Below are positions 12,496 to 29,092 of a stretch of 43,438 bases of DNA, piece after piece. The notes below the pieces were generated by a model. The model worked only from the letters and a program-made list of their open reading frames with translations. It did no database searches and was not told where the DNA came from. A program made the position numbers and the translations under genes. The first letter of the stretch is position 1. Every line of letters starts with the position of its first letter. Source of the stretch: Patescibacteria group bacterium (GTDB lineage: Bacteria; Patescibacteriota; Patescibacteriia; 2-12-FULL-57-11); contig SCUL01000002.1 in NCBI GenBank assembly GCA_004297205.1, positions 143,156 through 186,593 of the forward strand. Reading direction: 5' to 3'.

Positions 12496-13840
12496 AAATC
12501 TCGTACGTCTCCCCCGGCGCGGCGGGAGTGACCGGAAGCATCAGGTCCTGGGCCACGCGCTGGGAGAAGCTGTCGGCCACGGGACGGTCGGCGTGGGAGA
12601 CGTAGACGTGCTTGGGCATGCCGCCGCGCAACCATTCCAAAAGCTTGTCCTGGTCGGCGTGGGCGCTGTAGGCGCCGATGGCCACGACGCGGCAGCGGAC
12701 GCGGATCTTGTCGCCGTGGATGCGCACCACGCTCTCGCCGTCGTAGATGCGGCGCCCGAGCGTCCCCGCGGCCTGGTAGCCGATGACCAGCACCGACGAG
12801 TTCTTGTCCGGCAGGACGCGCTTCAAGTGGTGCAGGATGCGGCCGCCGTTCATCATGCCGCTGCCGGCGATGATGATCTTGGGTTGCGGCGCGTCATTGA
12901 CGCGCTTGGACTCCTCGCGGCTCGGCGTCATGGTCAGCCCCGGAAACTTGAAGAAGTCGTCGCCGCAATCCACGATGCAGGCCGCCTTGCGGTTGAAATA
13001 GGTCTCGTTGCGGCGGAAGACTTCCGTGGCTTTGATGGCCAGCGGCGAATCCAGAAAAACCGGAATCCGCGGGATGTGGTTGTGCTCGACCAGATGGTTC
13101 AGCTCGTAGAGCAGCTCCTGGGTGCGTTCGAGCGCAAAGGCCGGGATGAGCACCGTCCCGCCCAGCTTCACGGTTTCCAAAATGACGCGCTGCAGTTTCT
13201 CCGAGCGCTCGCGCGGATCTTCGTGCTTGCGGCCGCCGTAGGTCGCCTCGATGACCACCGCATCGGCCGCGGGCAGCCGCTCCGTGGGCCGCATGATCGG
13301 CACGTTGCGGTTGCCGAGGTCGCCGGAAAAGACGACCGACTTCCCGTCGGCCCAGATTTCGACGAAACTCGAGCCGAGAATATGTCCGGCGTCATGGAAC
13401 ACCGCGGTCACGCCCGGCGCGACTTTGGTTTCCTGGCCGTAGGGCACGGTGCGCACCAGGCGCTTGGCTTCCTGCATGGCGGCGCCGTCGTAGAGCGGCT
13501 CCCACTCTTTTTCCCGCTCCCAGTCTTCCTGCATGACGTGGAGCGTGTCTTCCCAGAGCAGCTCCATGAGTTGCGCCGTGGGCGGCGTGGCGTAGACCGG
13601 CGCGGTGCTGCCGAGGTGCGCCAGCACCGGAATGCGCCCCGTGTGGTCGGTGTGGGCGTGCGTCACGATCACGGCATCAAGACCGCGCACGTCGTACGGG
13701 AAGGCTTCGCGGTTGCGCTCGTTGGCGGTGCGCATCCCCTGGAACAGGCCGCAGTCAACCAGGACGCGCGCCTTGGCCGTCTCGATCAGCATCTGGGAGC
13801 CGGTGACCTCGCCGGCCGCGCCGAAGAACGTCAGTTTCAC
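12494..13840 (-). CDS. MBL-fold beta-CASP ribonuclease family protein
   Basis: KLTFFGAAGEVTGS, LVDCGLFQG, HAHTDH, AGHILGS, FSGDLG, SAHAD; GTG start overlaps the upstream TGA (GTGA). Confidence 0.92.
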   Translation of the reverse strand: MKLTFFGAAGEVTGSQMLIETAKARVLVDCGLFQGMRTANERNREAFPYDVRGLDAVIVTHAHTDHTGRIPVLAHLGSTAPVYATPPTAQLMELLWEDTLHVMQEDWEREKEWEPLYDGAAMQEAKRLVRTVPYGQETKVAPGVTAVFHDAGHILGSSFVEIWADGKSVVFSGDLGNRNVPIMRPTERLPAADAVVIEATYGGRKHEDPRERSEKLQRVILETVKLGGTVLIPAFALERTQELLYELNHLVEHNHIPRIPVFLDSPLAIKATEVFRRNETYFNRKAACIVDCGDDFFKFPGLTMTPSREESKRVNDAPQPKIIIAGSGMMNGGRILHHLKRVLPDKNSSVLVIGYQAAGTLGRRIYDGESVVRIHGDKIRVRCRVVAIGAYSAHADQDKLLEWLRGGMPKHVYVSHADRPVADSFSQRVAQDLMLPVTPAAPGETYEI

Positions 13841-14070
13841 ACCGCGCCCTTCTCGGCGCCGCGCTTGTAGTCGGCGTAACGGCTGCGCAGGTCGTCGCGC
13901 AGCTGGGAGATGTTGTCGTCGTCCTCCACTTCGGCCCAATCCACCTTCTCGTTCAGGACCACCTCGACCATGTCATCCCATTGTTCCTGCGAGGTGACGC
14001 CTTCGGCTTCGGCCCGCTCGCGGACCGCGCCGTACAACTCTTCGGGGCTGTATTCGAGATTCTCGACCAT
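13837..14070 (-). CDS. Small acidic hypothetical protein (77 aa)
   Basis: MVENLEYSPEELYGAVRERAEAEG...; translationally coupled to the beta-CASP gene. Confidence 0.7.
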   Translation of the reverse strand: MVENLEYSPEELYGAVRERAEAEGVTSQEQWDDMVEVVLNEKVDWAEVEDDDNISQLRDDLRSRYADYKRGAEKGAV

Positions 14071-15128: not shown

Positions 15129-15854
15129 ATGCGTCTTGCCATTGCCTTGACCACCACGCTGGTCGTCCTGTTTTCGATTGCAGGTGCCGGCATTGTCGGT
15201 GCGCGGCCGCTCTACGCGCCCGCCGCCATCATCACCGCCTTCACCGCGCCCGCTCCGGCCGCGGATGGTTTGCGCGTGGCGGCCGACGTTCCGGTCGTCC
15301 AGGCCGCGACGGCCTCGGTGGACCTGCCGATCGACGGATACGCCGTGCGTCGGACGCTCAAGACGTTCGGCACCTACGTGGACGACGACCGCTTTGTGGG
15401 CTACCACGCCGGCGAAGACGTGGAGTTCGTTTTGGAGAAGGCCGACGTGCCGGTGCACGCCATCGCCGACGGCACGGTGTTGTTCGTCGGCTGGGCTACG
15501 GGCTACGGCGGCCTGATCGTCGTGGCGCATGACGTGGACGGCGAGGACATTTCCGCCATCTACGGGCACGTCAACCTCGGCTCCTCGACGCTCACGGCCG
15601 GAGACCGCGTCGCACGCGGGCAGCTCCTGGCCAACCTGGGCCGGGGATTCAGCAAAGAAACCGACGGCCGCCGCAAGCATCTCCACTTCGGCCTCTATCC
15701 CGGACACGAGCTGCGCACGGCCGGCTATCTCAACGACTCCAAGGAGCTTTCGGACTGGATCGATCCGGCCGCGTTTTTCACGCGCCACGGCATCGCGGTG
15801 CCGGAGCTCGATCTCCCGGCAGTGGTCACGCAGTCCGAACAACCGACGCGTTGA
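15129..15854 (+). CDS. Secreted M23-family metallopeptidase
   Basis: Signal-like N-terminus; HAGED (HxxxD), VHAIADGTV, GYGG, YGH, HLHFG (HxH). Confidence 0.9.
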   Translation: MRLAIALTTTLVVLFSIAGAGIVGARPLYAPAAIITAFTAPAPAADGLRVAADVPVVQAATASVDLPIDGYAVRRTLKTFGTYVDDDRFVGYHAGEDVEFVLEKADVPVHAIADGTVLFVGWATGYGGLIVVAHDVDGEDISAIYGHVNLGSSTLTAGDRVARGQLLANLGRGFSKETDGRRKHLHFGLYPGHELRTAGYLNDSKELSDWIDPAAFFTRHGIAVPELDLPAVVTQSEQPTR

Positions 15855-16800
15855 TCCCCCACTTCGGCGGGAAGAAGAAGTGGATGGGTTCCGGCGCCGC
15901 AACAAAGCGGGCCTTTATTTTTTTGCGGGCGCTGGCCAGTTCCGGCACGGCCACGCGGCAATACTTATCCGTCTCGCAGAACAGGCCTTGCGCGTCGATG
16001 GCCTGGATCGGTCGTCCCCACAAGCCGTGAAACCCCAACCCGAGCCGTTCAAATTCCTGCTGTTGCCGTTCGACCATCCAAAGAATCGCCTCAGCCGGTG
16101 AATGGTCGCCGAGCGAGGTGAAAACTTTTTTCAGGCCGCGCAGCGCACCTGGGCCCGGCTTTGTAAAATCGTTTTCCGAAAAGTTGATGAGGTCCGAATA
16201 ATTCAGGTCGATGGCGATTTGATAGGCCATGAAGTCGCCGATCAGCGGGAAGCTGCGCAGCAGATGGAAGACGGCCGCGAGCGATGGCACCGCCAGCAGC
16301 CGCGCGCCTAAGTTCTGTTTGAGGAACATGTCTTGAAACAGGGCGACGTGGTTGCGGTGCTTCTCATCGAACCCGTAGGCCTTGTTGGCGCACAGGATGA
16401 AGGCGCCGGTGTAGAGGCCGCCGTTCTCACGCTTGGCCGCATCCAGCGCCTTCTCAAACGAGCCGTCGCGCAGGTCGCCGAGCGTCGGCGTGCGGCCGAG
16501 CGTTTTACGTACGCTGTTCCAGGTGTCGATGTCGCTGAAGGTGCGGAAGGCTGTGATCTGAAACAGCCGATCCTCCGGCGTACACGGCTCACCGTGATAG
16601 GCGACCTCGCGGATCAGATATTGCGAAACACGGTCAGCGGCGCGGAATACGTTGCAAAACTTGTAGGTCTGCAAAATCGGATCGTCGGTCCACGGTCCCG
16701 GCTCCCCTGCCACGCGCCGCTCAAAGATGCGCTGCCGCTCGGCAGCGAAGCGCCAGTAGATGTCGAAGACGTTTGGCCGAGGAACTGGCGGAGCCTTCAC
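15826..16800 (-). CDS. aGPT-Pplase1 / 5-hmdU DNA kinase helical domain family protein (putative amino acid:DNA transferase)
   Basis: YWRFAAERQRIFERR..G...PWTDDPIL..YKFCNVFRAADRVSQYLI, YTGAFIL, IGDFMAYQIAIDLNYS, PGPGALRG, AQGLFCETDKYCRV. Confidence 0.8.
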   Translation of the reverse strand: MKAPPVPRPNVFDIYWRFAAERQRIFERRVAGEPGPWTDDPILQTYKFCNVFRAADRVSQYLIREVAYHGEPCTPEDRLFQITAFRTFSDIDTWNSVRKTLGRTPTLGDLRDGSFEKALDAAKRENGGLYTGAFILCANKAYGFDEKHRNHVALFQDMFLKQNLGARLLAVPSLAAVFHLLRSFPLIGDFMAYQIAIDLNYSDLINFSENDFTKPGPGALRGLKKVFTSLGDHSPAEAILWMVERQQQEFERLGLGFHGLWGRPIQAIDAQGLFCETDKYCRVAVPELASARKKIKARFVAAPEPIHFFFPPKWGINASVVRTA

Positions 16801-17378
16801 AGCGTCTTAATGAGTCGCTCCAACGTTCTCAGGTACTCCCGCCGATGAATCTTATGTTCGGCACCCCGACTAACACGCAACGAACTTCTTGGGATACGAG
16901 CGCGTGCATCCTTCGCCCGAACCGCAACCGAAAAGTGCTCCTTGCTCCCGTACACCACATACGTTTTGACGCGAATCCTCGGCGCCATTGCGGCAAACGA
17001 GTAGTCGCTGTCCTTGAAGTGCTTTCGCCACCAACGGATCCACGACGGTTTTAGATTCTTCATGTCCTCCTCGAAGTACGGTGACAGCGAACAGAGGATC
17101 AGCGCCTTCGGCTTGATCTTTGTGGCGCTCAGGAAGGCGATGGTCGCGCCATACGAAAAGCCGAGCACGTACGTCTCCTGCCGTTTTCGTCCGTCATGGT
17201 GCTTCAGGAACTGCCGCACGAAGTCGGTGAACGTCCGGGGCGTCTTCCGGTGCCAGTCGATCAGGACATATCGCGGCGTGATCCCCTGCCGCTCGAAGAA
17301 TCCGCCGATGGCTTTATACCCGCGCTGCCGCAGCGGTGAATGGCCAAAGCCGGGAATGATGTAGGCGATCCTTTCCAT
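16797..17378 (-). CDS. Alpha/beta hydrolase
   Basis: IIPGFG oxyanion region, GFSYG nucleophile elbow, C-terminal GAEH; stop overlaps the next start (GTGA). Confidence 0.8.
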   Translation of the reverse strand: MERIAYIIPGFGHSPLRQRGYKAIGGFFERQGITPRYVLIDWHRKTPRTFTDFVRQFLKHHDGRKRQETYVLGFSYGATIAFLSATKIKPKALILCSLSPYFEEDMKNLKPSWIRWWRKHFKDSDYSFAAMAPRIRVKTYVVYGSKEHFSVAVRAKDARARIPRSSLRVSRGAEHKIHRREYLRTLERLIKTL

Positions 17379-17384
17379 GATCAG

Positions 17385-17421
17385 ATGGTAGCACATCAAA
17401 AGCGCCCGGCGATGCCGGGCG
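17385..17421 (-). promoter_or_regulatory. Terminator hairpin plus extended -10 promoter (near-leaderless start)
   Basis: cgcccggc-gat-gccgggcg followed by ctttt on the minus strand; then TG-C-TACCAT 6 nt before ATG 17378. Confidence 0.5.
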
Positions 17422-17434
17422 GACAGTCACTGAC

Positions 17435-18157
17435 TCAATAGATTCGTTTCCAACGCCTGAAACTTTTAATATCTGCAGTGCTCAAATCGAACCATTCGCC
17501 ATTCATGCGTTTTCCATCAAACCTTCTATGCCAGTATGCCTCAACCCCACTAGGGTCGTCGGTATTAATCGAGTGAATCAAATCGAGACGCTCGGGCAAT
17601 TGAATTCGAATTTCATTTCCGCGGCGTACTGTATCGAATGTCTTACCAATCTTGTAGTACCTGCCCGATTTGAACAAATACACGCTCCCTAGCCTCTCAT
17701 TCAGGTTGCCTTCCGTGGTATCGGCCCGCTTGTCATGTTTTTCAAGAATAGACTGACAAAGACCGATGATATCTTCGTTGCCACCTTCAGTTTTACAAAA
17801 TTTAACTACCCTCCTAACAAGCTCTTCTTTCGATCCAAAACGCATAAAGACTTTCGAACTTGGAAAACCTTCGTCGGTATTTTCTGCCACGCGAAACTCT
17901 TTGAATGTCGGAAACTTCCCCAACTTGGAGGTGAGCTCAATTGCTTTCTTAATCAAGAATTCGTCTGAGTAAGCGGTCTGAAGCCGGTTCGGTGTAAAAC
18001 CTGCCTCCGTTTGCGCCTGGCTAAAGCGGGCCCAATACTTCCCCCATTCATGAGGCTTGATTCCGGTTTCCTTTTCAAATCTGTTCATCCCCAAAGGATT
18101 ACCACCGTTCTGGGTGGCCGTGCGTTTGATTTCCTCCAATATTTCTTGTTTGTTCAT
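17435..18157 (-). CDS. MUG113/T5orf172-type GIY-YIG nuclease with N-terminal helical repeats
   Basis: GSVYLFKSGRYYKIGKT...EAYWHRRFDGKRMNGEWFDL; visibly AT-richer than flanks; start taken at MNKQEIL. Confidence 0.85.
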   Translation of the reverse strand: MNKQEILEEIKRTATQNGGNPLGMNRFEKETGIKPHEWGKYWARFSQAQTEAGFTPNRLQTAYSDEFLIKKAIELTSKLGKFPTFKEFRVAENTDEGFPSSKVFMRFGSKEELVRRVVKFCKTEGGNEDIIGLCQSILEKHDKRADTTEGNLNERLGSVYLFKSGRYYKIGKTFDTVRRGNEIRIQLPERLDLIHSINTDDPSGVEAYWHRRFDGKRMNGEWFDLSTADIKSFRRWKRIY

Positions 18158-18242
18158 ATAAACACGTAACGGCCGGGTCCCTGATCCGCAACTCAAACGA
18201 AGTACCTCTATCACGACTTACCGAGCCAATCCTAACACAAAC

Positions 18243-18271
18243 AAAAAGCCCCCGACAAAAGTCGGTGGCTT
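18243..18271 (-). terminator. Terminator downstream of tRNA-Gln
   Basis: aaagccaccgac-tttt-gtcgggggcttttt on the minus strand, abutting the CCA end. Confidence 0.7.
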
Positions 18272-18345
18272 TGGCTGGGAGACTAGGATTCGAACCTAGA
18301 TAAACAGGGCCAGAACCTGTTGTCCTACCATTAGACGATCTCCCA
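18272..18345 (-). tRNA. tRNA-Gln (anticodon CTG)
   Basis: tgggagatcgtctaatggtaggacaacaggttctggccctgtttatctaggttcgaatcctagtctcccagcca: acceptor tgggaga/tctccca, anticodon arm acagg-ttCTGgc-cctgt, TTCGAAT T-loop, encoded CCA. Confidence 0.97.
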
Positions 18346-18349
18346 ATAA

Positions 18350-18595
18350 TCACGTCATTTCAACGATCTTCCTAAACTCATTCCCACCTTTCAAACTCTT
18401 CAGGTAGTTTTCCCTTTTCCTCGCCTCCGTCCGTGTCGCAAACGATTCGCTCTTCACCAACTCAAGCGGGCGTCGTGATTTGGTTGACGGCACCCCGCCC
18501 TGATTATGAAGCAAGATTCGCGCTTCCAGATTCTCCGTCTGGCCAATGTAGTACCGGAGGTCTACTTGGCTCTTCAGGATATACACGGAATACAT
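18350..18595 (-). CDS. Small GIY-YIG endonuclease (81 aa)
   Basis: YSVYILKS...YYIGQTENLEARILLHNQG..STK.RRPLELV..E.F.TR.EA..RE.YLKS. Confidence 0.9.
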   Translation of the reverse strand: MYSVYILKSQVDLRYYIGQTENLEARILLHNQGGVPSTKSRRPLELVKSESFATRTEARKRENYLKSLKGGNEFRKIVEMT

Positions 18596-18600
18596 ATTGG

Positions 18601-18681
18601 TGTCCTATCCCGCCGCAGCGGGACCCCGCCGACTTTGAAAGTCTGAGAGGGGTGGCGGGGCCATTAGACGATCTCCCAATA
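18601..18681 (-). pseudogene. Duplicated 5' fragment of tRNA-Gln (nt 1-25) interrupted by a 53-nt palindromic insert
   Basis: 18661-18681 is identical to 18328-18348 (21 bp); after the insert (18608-18660) the next tRNA bases taggaca resume at 18607-18601. Confidence 0.85.
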
Positions 18682-18688
18682 CGGCACG

Positions 18689-18717
18689 AGGATAGCAAAG
18701 CCTGGCGAGGGAATCAA
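18689..18717 (-). promoter_or_regulatory. Promoter TTGATT-N17-(TG)cTATCCT upstream of the tRNA fragment
   Basis: Exact 17-nt spacing with extended -10, about 10 nt before the duplicated tRNA 5' end. Confidence 0.6.
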
Positions 18718-20333
18718 GAGACGACCCGCCCCCCGAAGGCATCGAGCACGTTCTTGATGACCGGATCCTCCATGGAGACGGAGACAACCTCGCTGGCCGG
18801 GTTCTGCAATCCTTCCACGACCAGGCCCTCGATGCAGACCTTGCAGCCGAAGATTTTCTCGCAGGCGTCCTCCACGGTGCGGCGGTTCTTGTGGTCATTC
18901 AGCCGGTCGCGGTGGAAGGCGAAGGGTACGCCGATGATCAGCTTCTCCGCCTCGATGGCTTCCGGCTTGCTGCCGTTCAGCACATAGGAAAGCGAGTGGC
19001 TGACTTCTCCAGCAGCGACGATCAACTGTTGCCACTTCTCGCGGAAGGCCTCGAGCGGGAGCGTGATGGCGGACGGGGACGACACCCCCTCTCCCGCCTG
19101 CGGCGGGACGAGTGGCTCGCCCTTCGCAAGGGGGAGAATGTTCTCGGGCGCGCCGAAGCTAGCCTCCGCGGGTGCTTTTTTTACGGGTGGCGGTGCAACC
19201 GGTTTCGGCGCAACCGGCGCCGGCATCGACACGGTCGGTGCAGCGGCAGGTGGCGGCGCCAGCAGCGTGGCCACGACGATTTCAAGCGGCAGCGGCGAAC
19301 CGTCGCCGCGCTTCACGCGCTCCTGCGCGGTCATGATCGTTTCAATGGCGGCGAGCAAACGCGGCGTGCCCCAGCCGGCAAGCGGACCGGAGACGAGCGC
19401 CGCGCCGGGTTCGTCGAGCTCGCTGAGGCCGGACGTCTCCCCCATCGCCGCGAGCAGACCGAGACGCAACAGCCGCTGCGTGTCTTCCAGGAAGCGCGCG
19501 AAGTCCACGCCGTCGGCAACGAGTTTGTCGATCAGCTGCAACGCATCGCCGCCCCGGCCGCGGTGGATGACGTCCAAAAACTGCCGCGCCAAGTCGAGAT
19601 CGGAATGCGGCAGCACCAGCGCGGCTTCGTCGCGCGTGACGCGCTTTTCCCCGAGCGCCAGGATCTGGCCGAGCATCGACTCGGCATCGCGCAAGGAACC
19701 GCCGGCAGCCCGGGCAATGTCCTTGAGCACCTCGGTGTCCACGTCGACTTCTTCTTTGGAGGCGAGCGTCGCCAGGCGCTTCACCAAATCGGGTACGCCG
19801 ATCTTCCGGAAGTCGAAACGCTGGCAGCGGGAGAGGATGGTGGCCGGGACTTTATGCGTCTCCGTGGTCGCCAGGATGAAAATGGCGTGGGCCGGCGGCT
19901 CCTCCAGCGTCTTCAAGAGCGCATTGAAGGCCGCCGTCGAAAGCATGTGGACTTCGTCGATGATGAACACCTTGTACTTCAGCCGGGCCGGGGTGAAGCG
20001 CACGCTCTCGATGATGTTCTCGCGCACCGCATCCACGCCGGTGTGGGAGGCGGCGTCGATCTCCAGGATGTCCACGGCCTTGTTGTCCTGGATCGACAAG
20101 CAGGCCTCGCAGGCCAGGCAGGGTTCGTTCCCTTTGCGGTCCGTGCAGTTGATGACCTTGGCGAAGATGCGGGCCGTGGTGGTCTTGCCGATCCCGCGGG
20201 GGCCGGCAAACAGGTAGGCATGGGCGATCTTGCCCGCGCCGATTTCGTTCTGGAGGGTGACGCGGACGTGGACCTGGTCCGTGAGGTCCCCGAAGGTCTG
20301 CGGCCGGTATTTGCGGTACAGCGCCAAGCCCAT
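18714..20333 (-). CDS. dnaX: DNA polymerase III subunit gamma/tau
   Basis: ALYRKYRPQTF, GPRGIGKTT, Zn motif C...PCLACEAC, EIDAAS, IIDEVHML, AFNALLKTLEEPP, SRC motif, GGSLRDA. Confidence 0.97.
   Translation of the reverse strand: MGLALYRKYRPQTFGDLTDQVHVRVTLQNEIGAGKIAHAYLFAGPRGIGKTTTARIFAKVINCTDRKGNEPCLACEACLSIQDNKAVDILEIDAASHTGVDAVRENIIESVRFTPARLKYKVFIIDEVHMLSTAAFNALLKTLEEPPAHAIFILATTETHKVPATILSRCQRFDFRKIGVPDLVKRLATLASKEEVDVDTEVLKDIARAAGGSLRDAESMLGQILALGEKRVTRDEAALVLPHSDLDLARQFLDVIHRGRGGDALQLIDKLVADGVDFARFLEDTQRLLRLGLLAAMGETSGLSELDEPGAALVSGPLAGWGTPRLLAAIETIMTAQERVKRGDGSPLPLEIVVATLLAPPPAAAPTVSMPAPVAPKPVAPPPVKKAPAEASFGAPENILPLAKGEPLVPPQAGEGVSSPSAITLPLEAFREKWQQLIVAAGEVSHSLSYVLNGSKPEAIEAEKLIIGVPFAFHRDRLNDHKNRRTVEDACEKIFGCKVCIEGLVVEGLQNPASEVVSVSMEDPVIKNVLDAFGGRVVS
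19084..19136. repeat. Nested palindromic repeat inserted in frame in the dnaX linker
   Basis: ctcgcccttcgcaagggggag hairpin plus tcccgcctgcggcggga hairpin; encodes LPLAKGEPLVPPQAGEGV. Confidence 0.65.
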
Positions 20334-29055: not shown

Positions 29056-29092
29056 ACACCAAGAGCCCCGCCACAGCGGGGCCCTTGTGTCG

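Follow-up and report, generated by a model that had tools for sequence, protein, structure and literature searches.

The window analysed here is a stretch of 43,438 nucleotides (nt) from a Patescibacteria group bacterium (assembly GCA_004297205.1, contig SCUL01000002.1, positions 143,156 to 186,593 of the forward strand), and the subject of this work is a tRNA-Gln(CTG) gene on its minus strand whose 5' part occurs twice, the two copies enclosing a pair of GC-rich hairpins and a small open reading frame (ORF) for a GIY-YIG nuclease of 81 amino acids (aa). Read along the minus strand, the locus comprises the dnaX stop codon, an extended -10 motif, the trinucleotide TAT followed by tRNA-Gln nt 1-18 (hereafter the stub), a 53-nt double hairpin, tRNA nt 19-25, the ORF, 4 nt, the complete tRNA-Gln(CTG), which is the only tRNA that ARAGORN finds in the window, and a terminator (Table 1), with 38 nt between the dnaX stop and the stub. 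A preliminary description, made from the sequence alone, had proposed this layout, and the reading of 17900-19100 on the minus strand with ARAGORN, the ORF listing, a repeat finder, Pfam, Rfam and a promoter/terminator scan places every part, base for base, where it had been put.

Table 1. Features of the tRNA-Gln locus and of its downstream neighbourhood, in window coordinates.
Feature	Position	Strand	Evidence or remark
dnaX (DNA polymerase III gamma/tau)	18714-20333	-	Pfam DNA_pol3_delta2 E=1e-42
dnaX stop TGA	18716-18714	-	
Putative extended -10 promoter element TGCTATCCT of the tRNA-Gln gene	18697-18689	-	TGnTAnnCT motif conservation, sequence inference
Native stub: 3-nt leader TAT + tRNA-Gln nt 1-18 (upstream copy of the 21-bp repeat)	18681-18661	-	exact repeat
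53-nt insert (hairpin 1 + hairpin 2)	18660-18608	-	fold
Hairpin 1: CCCCGCC / GGCGGGG stem, 23-nt loop with inner stem GACTTT..AAAGTC	18660-18624	-	fold
Hairpin 2: TCCCGC-TGCG-GCGGGA	18623-18608	-	fold
TAGGACA = tRNA nt 19-25	18607-18601	-	
TAGGACA + CCAAT spacer	18607-18596	-	AGGA 8 nt before ATG
GIY-YIG nuclease ORF, 81 aa, catalytic domain only	18595-18350	-	Pfam PF01541 E=8e-15
TTAT leader	18349-18346	-	
3' end of the unit: TTAT leader + element-side copy of tRNA nt 1-18 (downstream repeat copy 18328-18348)	18349-18328	-	
Complete regenerated tRNA-Gln(CTG), CCA encoded	18345-18272	-	ARAGORN; Rfam tRNA 62.5 bits
Intrinsic terminator-like hairpin CCGAC-TTTT-GTCGG, then GGGCTTTTTG T-run	18265-18242	-	promoter/terminator scan
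HNH_repeat + MUG113/T5orf172 (GIY-YIG-like) protein, 259 aa	17435-18214	-	GC 45.5% vs window 62.7%
5-hmdU DNA kinase helical domain protein	15826-16800	-	PF18723 E=1.6e-100; phrog_2396

The exact 21-bp direct repeat reported in that description (18328-18348 and 18661-18681) is real according to the repeat finder; by our own arithmetic, about 2e-4 chance repeats of 21-mers are expected in 43 kb. A Logan contig from a groundwater metagenome (run X1; 22,935 nt, depth 48.5) shows 0 differences from the window over 17400-19400, hence the arrangement is not an artefact of one assembly pipeline, an objection that had been foreseen from the start. The empty-allele joint was not seen in the assembled contigs of the X1 data. 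The only RNA run listed was set aside, as it shares 4% of words and so stems from a different organism.

Empty alleles, whose search in relatives had been suggested earlier, were found. The relatives were identified by a DnaX search, and the contigs of the closest ones were retrieved and compared (loci in other genomes are cited below by L numbers). In L081 (DnaX 84% identical) 40 nt separate the dnaX stop from a single intact tRNA-Gln(CTG). This spacer contains the same gctttgcta... motif, a terminator comes after the tRNA, and the ORF and the hairpins are absent. L083 (DnaX 69%) is empty in the same way, with the spacing from dnaX likewise kept, L084 (66%) has an intact tRNA-Gln after an intervening gene, again without ORF and without hairpins, and in L082 (82%) the tRNA 5' end is uninterrupted at the contig edge. 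The alignment of the window with L081 yields a clean 333-nt block with exact boundaries, composed of the hairpins (53 nt), TAGGACA (7), CCAAT (5), the ORF (246), TTAT (4) and tRNA nt 1-18 (18). Because the relatives carry an empty site with one intact tRNA-Gln, this block is a 333-bp insertion in the window, which agrees with the unit of roughly 330 bp proposed before, and relative to the empty allele it lies between nt 18 and 19, in the D-loop, of the tRNA-Gln(CUG) gene. Since the unit carries its own copy of tRNA nt 1-18, a complete tRNA is rebuilt at its 3' edge, and the native 5' 18 nt are left as a dead stub under the native promoter, at the very place, counted from dnaX, where L081 has its intact tRNA.

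The orthologous locus is filled in a nearer relative, L085 (DnaX C-terminus 89% identical in aa and 85% in nt), whose nuclease, with 82% aa identity, is the closest relative of the one in the window. The site is hence polymorphic for presence and absence with a precise empty state, being filled in the window and L085 and empty in L081, L083 and L084. The same element type is found at another locus in L086 (nuclease 75% aa), in a tRNA-Gln(TTG) gene with a glycosyltransferase gene on one side and ftsX on the other; it has the same unusual long-loop hairpin 1 as the window, and its exact 21-bp repeat is made of its own leader (TAC) and its own acceptor sequence.

These alleles bear directly on the explanation that there is no element at all, i.e. 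that assembly created the arrangement, or that a tRNA duplicated in tandem has decayed with a small, unrelated ORF in its midst. Long upstream pseudo-copies elsewhere, reaching to about nt 60 (L055, L079, L022), do superficially look like a decaying tandem copy. However, they end at the T-loop, and the ORF and a hairpin accompany the pseudo-copies as a rule in dozens of independent loci; pseudo-copies of the more frequent configuration A (see below) never contain the acceptor 3' strand, the empty alleles hold a single tRNA and the independent contig is identical over 2 kb. The relatives thus show empty single-tRNA sites and no decayed full tandem duplication, the alternative that the preliminary description had itself named; this explanation is already contradicted and retains a negligible probability.

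Upstream of the stub, the TGnTAnnCT motif (TGCTATCCT in the window) lies 10-12 nt 5' of tRNA position 1 and is kept in both filled (window, L085) and empty (L081, L082) alleles; this places the stub at the former native tRNA start. The motif is the putative promoter of the tRNA gene and would now drive stub, ORF and tRNA together. The earlier statement that the element lies under the tRNA promoter is therefore backed by a motif conserved in filled and empty alleles, but a sigma-70 consensus scan calls no promoter at the locus and does not detect TGCTATCCT. An element bringing its own promoter was considered and rejected, because the 38-nt interval between dnaX stop and stub is orthologous to the spacer of the empty allele. 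At the other end, T-run hairpins analogous to the window terminator are also found 3' of the tRNA in L081, L085 and L086. A group I intron with a homing endonuclease was rejected as well, given that Rfam detects no ribozyme fold and that nothing interrupts the functional tRNA; over 17000-20000, with E up to 1 allowed, Rfam reports tRNA only, with no intron or known leader family, and at the gathering threshold it reports only tRNAs in seven related loci. No recombinase or integrase domain is present in the ORFs scanned between 13.8 and 21.7 kb, so that the absence of an integrase, which had been asserted in general terms, holds for this interval and not for the window as a whole.

The limits of the unit are also marked by loci with more than one copy. 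In L087, L147 and L161 what stands before the upstream stub is a copy of the ORF 3' end (16, 11 and 14 identical nt, respectively) and not the native leader, and L087 has an additional stub upstream, with a different, native leader. These three loci are internally deleted tandem units, and what repeats in them comprises hairpins, spacer, ORF, short leader and tRNA nt 1-18, in agreement with the unit proposed in the preliminary description; the stub contexts in L087, L147 and L161 put the element-side copy of the 5' end at the 3' side of the unit. Together with the insertion at D-loop position 18|19, this bears out the proposal that the D-arm is the target and that the tRNA is rebuilt downstream.

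Decay products are common. L127 is an ORF-less scar in which stub and hairpins are kept about 50 nt before the tRNA, the ORFs of L104 and L161 are internally deleted, and L204 and the downstream part of L007 hold full-length tRNA-Gln-like sequences with hairpins in the D-loop and no ORF, beside a live tRNA-Gln. Such hairpin-only pseudo-tRNAs could arise by deletion between two TAGGACA copies. In the older loci L003, L006, L007, L010 and L012 the stub and the live tRNA 5' end differ at 2-4 positions. A target-site duplication of fixed length was considered too. The exact repeat varies in length, from 18, 19, 20 or 21 nt where the locus is simple to 29-34 nt where it is tandem, and it may either have been made at insertion by staggered breaks or have been kept by gene conversion between the copies. 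ORF-less tandem pseudo-tRNA repeats, each with a hairpin, are also observed between ORF and live tRNA or after them (L011 3250-3410, L040, L076 and L080).

Concerning the protein, PF01541 spans residues 1-70 of the 81 aa and Pfam gives no second domain; an alignment of 24 sequences shows Y5, Y16-I17-G18, R26, H30 and E62 to be invariant. The catalytic residues are thus conserved throughout, and the ratio dN/dS against L085 is about 0.11; the ORF is under purifying selection. The AlphaFold2 model has a predicted local distance difference test score (pLDDT) of 95.7 and the order E-E-H-H-E-H-H. Sequence-profile matches in the PDB are led by the UPF0213 proteins EF2693 (1ywl, E=3e-12) and BH0048 (1zg2, E=1e-11), followed by Slx1, and the top Foldseek matches are 1zg2, 7wme and 6sei, that is BH0048, the plant Slx1-like HIGLE and Slx1, ahead of I-TevI and UvrC. 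The protein is thus a member of the GIY-YIG superfamily, in its UPF0213/Slx1-like branch. None of the defence-system (PADLOC), phage-family (PHROGs) and protein (NCBIfam) models names the ORF. Its composition is foreign, with a GC content of 50% against 62.7% for the window and a third-position GC content (GC3) of 0.65 against 0.85 in dnaX.

The leader between stub and ORF is a conserved part of the element. A strict pattern for tRNA-Gln loci with the D-loop CTAATGG|TAGGAC (Group 1) matches 26 loci, 14 of which come from a DNA-pattern scan of metagenomes whose 120 hits comprise about 100 chance 16-mers in unrelated GC-rich genomes and about 21 true elements. In all 26 Group-1 loci the stub is followed by the same two hairpins, with the stems CCCCGC(C)/(G)GCGGGG and TCCCGC/GCGGGA invariant throughout and the loops variable, hairpin 1 showing 12 loop variants (C-NN-A) and hairpin 2 five (T-NN-G; C-NN-A on the opposite strand). 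TAGGACA follows hairpin 2 in 18/26 leaders, with the ATG 2-9 nt past it, and the acceptor part of the stub, which exists in at least 10 variants, tracks the host tRNA. Since the two hairpins occur in every Group-1 locus, the 53-nt insert is a standard part of the element and not a secondary insertion; the double hairpin noticed in the preliminary description is there, but it belongs to the element rather than to a separate later event. The insert in the window is therefore the standard module, in a version with an enlarged hairpin 1 loop common to L085 and L086. The AGGA of tRNA nt 20-23, within TAGGACA, is probably the Shine-Dalgarno sequence, i.e. the ribosome-binding site, of the ORF.

Other clades carry other hairpins. 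A second group, in tRNA-Gln genes of the GCCAAGTGGTAAGGCA type, has a single hairpin, (C/T)CCCGCC-NN-GGCGGG(G/A), in place of the anticodon arm of the pseudo-copy, which extends here to about nt 60, in the T-loop. The perfect hairpin CCTGCCTGCCGGCAGGCAGG stands at the same place in Bacteroidota tRNA-Arg loci, TCCCGAC-NNN-GTCGGGA goes with tRNA-Asp and TCCGCC-NNNN-GGCGGA with tRNA-Glu, and the changes between clades preserve perfect complementarity of the arms. A comparison of the window with L085 gives 0/86 differences for the stub, the hairpins and the Shine-Dalgarno region (hairpin 1 is 100% identical) and 0/78 for the leader plus tRNA, as against 56/246 in the ORF and 12/61 in adjacent non-coding DNA, and the longest identical run measures 121 nt (18574-18694). 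Either the leader would be as constrained as the tRNA or it would undergo homogenisation.

Next to the GIY-YIG ORFs of different phyla, the 20-nt perfect hairpin CCTGCCTGCCGGCAGGCAGG is cleanly inserted in pseudo-tRNAs, either in the D-loop, in the anticodon loop or in the T-loop (L042, L048, L055, L076 and L079 in Bacteroidota, L024 and L027 in Moranbacteria/Parcubacteria, and L080); L079 holds a second copy of it that its relative L055 does not have. In the window, TCCCGCCTGCGGCGGGA within dnaX and GCCCCGCCACAGCGGGGC just past a stop codon (19092-19108 and 29066-29081) resemble the hairpins of the element. The second looks like a terminator stem, and both may be coincidental, the motif count of the window being that expected by chance.

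The hairpins raise the question of what is being mobilised. In one alternative to a nuclease-centred element, the GC hairpins themselves would be the mobile module, in the manner of repetitive extragenic palindromic (REP) sequences with their REP-associated tyrosine transposases (RAYT), of IS200-type ends or of mitochondrial GC clusters; the GIY-YIG protein would act as a structure-specific nickase on hairpins or on extruded stem-loops of tRNA genes, and units with an ORF would be autonomous and hairpin-only copies non-autonomous. Clean insertion in D-, anticodon- and T-loops of pseudo-tRNAs, with target bases neither lost nor duplicated, speaks for this, and so do the extra hairpin of L079 relative to L055, the T-loop hairpin of L027 and L024, the hairpin-only pseudo-tRNAs of L204 and L007, the sharing of the same 20-nt CCTGCCTGCCGGCAGGCAGG by Bacteroidota and Moranbacteria, the invariance of the stem sequence beside variable loops and, as far as the model tells, a fold nearest to the branched-DNA nucleases Slx1 and HIGLE. 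Nevertheless, the motif CCCGC..GCGGG is not dispersed in the 43-kb window (10 matches, 9.9 expected by chance), across the loci the hairpins concentrate at elements, and a deletion between TAGGACA repeats can yield hairpin-only pseudo-tRNAs. The suggestion that the nuclease has spread palindromes through the window segment thus finds no support, the motif count being at chance, and no Y1 transposase was seen, the hairpin counts covering 43 kb of the genome. It also counts against mobility of the hairpins that we know of no biochemical precedent for a GIY-YIG enzyme as a hairpin transposase, and altogether we regard this explanation as unlikely.

The design of the window element recurs widely. 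The nuclease has 51 close relatives in a 90%-clustered protein collection, chiefly in Patescibacteria, and a profile search against 1.84 billion representatives returns 20,362 clusters when E may reach 1e-3 and 4,663 when the limit is set at 1e-10 (50% identity), the proteins being mainly of 80-130 aa among the matches listed. A scripted analysis was made of 81 loci, 80 from reference genomes plus the window. In 53 of these the ORF abuts or overlaps a co-oriented tRNA, either in configuration A, where the tRNA starts -45 to +70 nt from the ORF stop (42/81), or in configuration B, where the tRNA ends at most 70 nt upstream of the ORF (11/81); in 5 further loci the tRNA is 110-190 nt off, behind tandem pseudo-tRNA repeats. 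A partial copy of the same tRNA lies across the ORF in 46/53 loci, from its 5' part in 36/42 A loci and from its 3' part in 10/11 B loci, and it is usually interrupted by a perfect GC-rich hairpin (an ungapped score of at least 20 was demanded, the maximum in control windows 1 kb away being 18). The survey of small GIY-YIG genes for flanking tRNA fragments that had been recommended thus makes the arrangement the rule for the protein clade of the nuclease, and it refines the original picture, as mirror-image members duplicate the 3' part of the tRNA instead.

The tRNA genes involved include those for Gln, Arg, Asp, Glu, Met, Leu, Pro, Ser, Asn and Lys. The closest relatives of the nuclease are all beside tRNA-Gln and the distant clades beside the others, with Arg in Bacteroidota. 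The hosts are Patescibacteria, Bacteroidota, Ignavibacteriota and others, and the Gln clade itself ranges over Patescibacteria, Ignavibacteriota, one Bacteroidota metagenome-assembled genome (MAG) and one Micavibrio MAG. The nearest-neighbour protein sits at a tRNA of the same amino-acid identity in 43/52 comparisons, a figure that is probably an underestimate because some labels took a neighbouring tRNA. In many loci the ORF runs into the tRNA and has its stop codon within the D-arm, for example ...KKIIKHCGIV followed by the TAA of CGTCTAATGG, or the TAG in GGATAGAGC or in GTAGCTC, and in tRNA-Met loci the ORF stop is the TAA of the anticodon loop.

Some of these loci mislead annotation: in L021 (525-601) a tRNA-Gln-derived pseudo-tRNA with a hairpin for its anticodon arm is called 'tRNA-Thr(TGT)' by ARAGORN, and gene callers extend some GIY-YIG ORFs through hairpin 2, adding the peptide GPAAAG (proteins P0022 and P0005). 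In L003, L007, L008, L012 and L087, inverted repeats of 6-16 bp flank the live tRNA-Gln and would lengthen the acceptor stem of the precursor (TCATTGCGTCCTCACC / GGTGAGGACGCAAT in L007); they may form a processing stem that parts mRNA from tRNA. The window has no flanking inverted repeats of this kind.

The regularity across phyla could also be read as that of a retained, host-linked or addiction module, whose nuclease would act on tRNA or tRNA genes (in quality control, as a toxin, or in the resolution of R-loops or cruciforms) and whose tRNA-like hairpin leader would be a regulatory or antidote RNA, following the logic of type III toxin-antitoxin systems. Purifying selection on the ORF, a leader conserved as well as the tRNA, the strictly shared orientation of ORF and tRNA, which are closely packed or overlap across phyla, and the tandem pseudo-tRNA repeats before or after the ORFs of L011, L040 and L021 would all suit such a module, and a small Slx1-like GIY-YIG domain fused to a TrmH-type tRNA G18 methyltransferase has been taken to suggest RNA metabolism (PMC1564403). 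Yet presence and absence at the same site differ between close relatives, the occupied tRNA identities differ by lineage, decayed and internally deleted copies are frequent, the base composition is foreign and the defence-system library gives no match, so that we consider a retained module decidedly improbable.

The other side of the tRNA is variable as well. About 4 kb downstream of the window tRNA are absent from L081, whose genes for a 77-aa protein and a beta-CASP protein lie 1 kb from the tRNA, their window counterparts being at 12935-14070; the DNA on either side of the tRNA-Gln is thus variable and of foreign composition. Directly past the tRNA terminator is the gene of the 259-aa protein with an HNH_repeat, a repeat associated with homing endonucleases; the gene is missing at the same place in L081, L083 and L084 and appears to be a second one of the selfish-nuclease kind next to this tRNA. 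The stretch also encodes an alpha/beta hydrolase and an M23 peptidase, and domain scans of its ORFs reveal no integrase. The 5-hmdU kinase-domain protein, a component of phage-type thymidine hypermodification, lies within the variable islet at about 14.1-18.2 kb that L081 lacks.

Given the insertion with its parts, the regeneration of the tRNA, the recurrence of the design, gain and loss in relatives, the decay products and the constraint on nuclease gene and leader, we favour, with a probability of roughly 60%, a selfish homing-type element that is one member of a large 'tRNA-nested' GIY-YIG family. As the layout suggests, transcription from the tRNA promoter would run through stub, hairpins, ORF and tRNA and stop at the terminator; RNase P, by its general role in processing the 5' end of tRNAs, would part the tRNA from the mRNA, the AGGA of tRNA nt 20-23 would serve as ribosome-binding site, and the 5' hairpins may stabilise or regulate the mRNA. 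The nuclease would then break unoccupied tRNA genes of the same identity, or structured DNA there, and the break would be repaired from the occupied copy, with the near-invariant tRNA (the GATCGTCTAATGG|TAGGACA D-arm and the rest) providing the homology arms; later the element would decay by internal deletion. Both co-transcription and the spread driven by the nuclease are what we infer from the sequences.

A number of points weigh against a homing-type element. The fold is nearer to the structure-specific nucleases Slx1 and HIGLE than to I-TevI according to Foldseek, and Pfam detects in the 81-aa protein no DNA-binding module for long targets as in I-TevI and the Seg proteins. The rebuilt tRNA keeps the D-loop junction CTAATGG|TAGGAC, hence a purely sequence-specific enzyme would cut its own host gene too; the tandem units may be a trace of such cutting. 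In the window as in L085 and L086, the acceptor sequence in both copies of the repeat is specific to the locus and comes with 3 leader nt, which a simple copy from a foreign donor does not predict, so that a duplication of the staggered-cut type or later gene conversion is required. No near-identical copies that would point to recent horizontal jumps were found in clearly unrelated genomes. The IMG/VR scan of viral contigs returned no copies; homologues in phage records have about 40% identity and none of them adjoins tRNAs, so these two sources give no evidence for a phage vector of the element.

A bolder reading, which we put forward as a conjecture that is rather unlikely as it stands, is that these form an as yet unrecognised class of bacterial mobile elements spanning several phyla, in which an Slx1-like nuclease with a catalytic domain only and a conserved GC hairpin of 16-20 nt recognise tRNA genes by their shape (the D-, anticodon- or T-loop when extruded) and not by a long sequence, insert and rebuild the tRNA, by a mechanism unlike classical homing, transposition or site-specific recombination.

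Among known systems, the mobile endonuclease ORFs (mORFs) of fungal mitochondria that come with duplicated gene ends are the closest analogues. They bring a replacement terminus for the gene and leave the native one as a pseudo-copy, with examples in Allomyces macrogynus atp6 and in Glomus atp6, atp9, cox2 and nad3, and the Allomyces endonuclease is stated to have been biochemically shown to drive mobility (PMC3630166). As in the window, a free-standing endonuclease gene (GIY-YIG in Glomus atp9) sits in an essential gene, carries the replacement end, with the native end remaining as a pseudo-copy, and is polymorphic for presence among close relatives; mORFs are co-transcribed with the host gene, as would be the tRNA-nested element, and configuration B of the family (tRNA, ORF, 3' pseudo-copy) has the order of an mORF. 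In contrast to these, the window element lies in a bacterial tRNA gene and duplicates its 5' end, as in a mirror image, its nuclease has 81 aa without a DNA-binding module, GC hairpins are an integral part of it, and its repeats are locus-specific and not visibly foreign. What is known is therefore a free-standing endonuclease ORF that repairs the gene it interrupts, and what is new is the bacterial tRNA target, the duplication of the 5' end, the obligatory hairpin module and the minimal nuclease.

Other systems share some traits too. T4 SegB is a GIY-YIG homing enzyme in a tRNA gene cluster, a larger protein with no gene duplicated (PMC2330249). The phage enzymes SegB and I-TevI have in common with the window nuclease the GIY-YIG catalytic chemistry, the tRNA-gene neighbourhood and the selfish logic of inheritance, but the Seg and Tev enzymes measure 200-250 aa, have separate DNA-binding domains and lie between genes without duplication. 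UPF0213/YhbQ (PDB 1ywl, 1zg2) and Slx1/HIGLE are the best matches in sequence and fold and share the size of a lone catalytic domain. We know of no established function for UPF0213 proteins, Slx1 requires Slx4 and a RING domain, and to our knowledge neither UPF0213 nor Slx1/HIGLE has a link to insertion in tRNA genes. Integrase islands and prophages likewise enter tRNA genes and rebuild them by a carried partial copy; they rely on a tyrosine or serine recombinase, duplicate the 3' part of the tRNA as the attachment site (att) and are kilobases long, whereas the unit in the window has 333 bp, a duplicated 5' part and no recombinase in the ORFs at 13.8-21.7 kb. Mitochondrial GC clusters and double-hairpin elements (background in PMC2800124), as well as REP sequences with RAYT, resemble the leader as short, GC-rich perfect hairpins, cleanly inserted, sometimes paired and tied to mobile DNA; the hairpins of the window differ in being tied to one ORF and to tRNA-derived sequence, undispersed in the window and without a Y1 transposase. 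A 2006 phylogenomic study of the GIY-YIG superfamily placed small bacterial proteins of this kind near Slx1 and noted the TrmH-type tRNA methyltransferase fusion (PMC1564403). The full-text literature, searched also for the hairpin sequences, yielded no account of small GIY-YIG genes in such a nested position at tRNA genes of bacteria, which, as its coverage is incomplete, is an absence of evidence only.

Taken together, the analysis points to a widespread family of tRNA-gene parasites that is undescribed as far as we could find. If this is true, the common small 'GIY-YIG nuclease family protein' (the 4,663 clusters of the stricter profile search, which abound in Patescibacteria and Bacteroidota) would be a tRNA-gene parasite and the bacterial counterpart of the fungal mitochondrial mORFs, and its 333 bp would make the window element the smallest protein-coding mobile unit of the mORF type known to us. 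It would also explain the recurrent tRNA 5' and 3' fragments and the hairpin-bearing pseudo-tRNAs that confuse tRNA and gene callers. Members are carried by cultured Bacteroidota, among them Terrimonas sp. NS-102 (L055, at tRNA-Arg(TCT)), which makes the family accessible to ordinary genetics and biochemistry, and the family would allow one to test how a minimal nuclease chooses its target with no DNA-binding domain.

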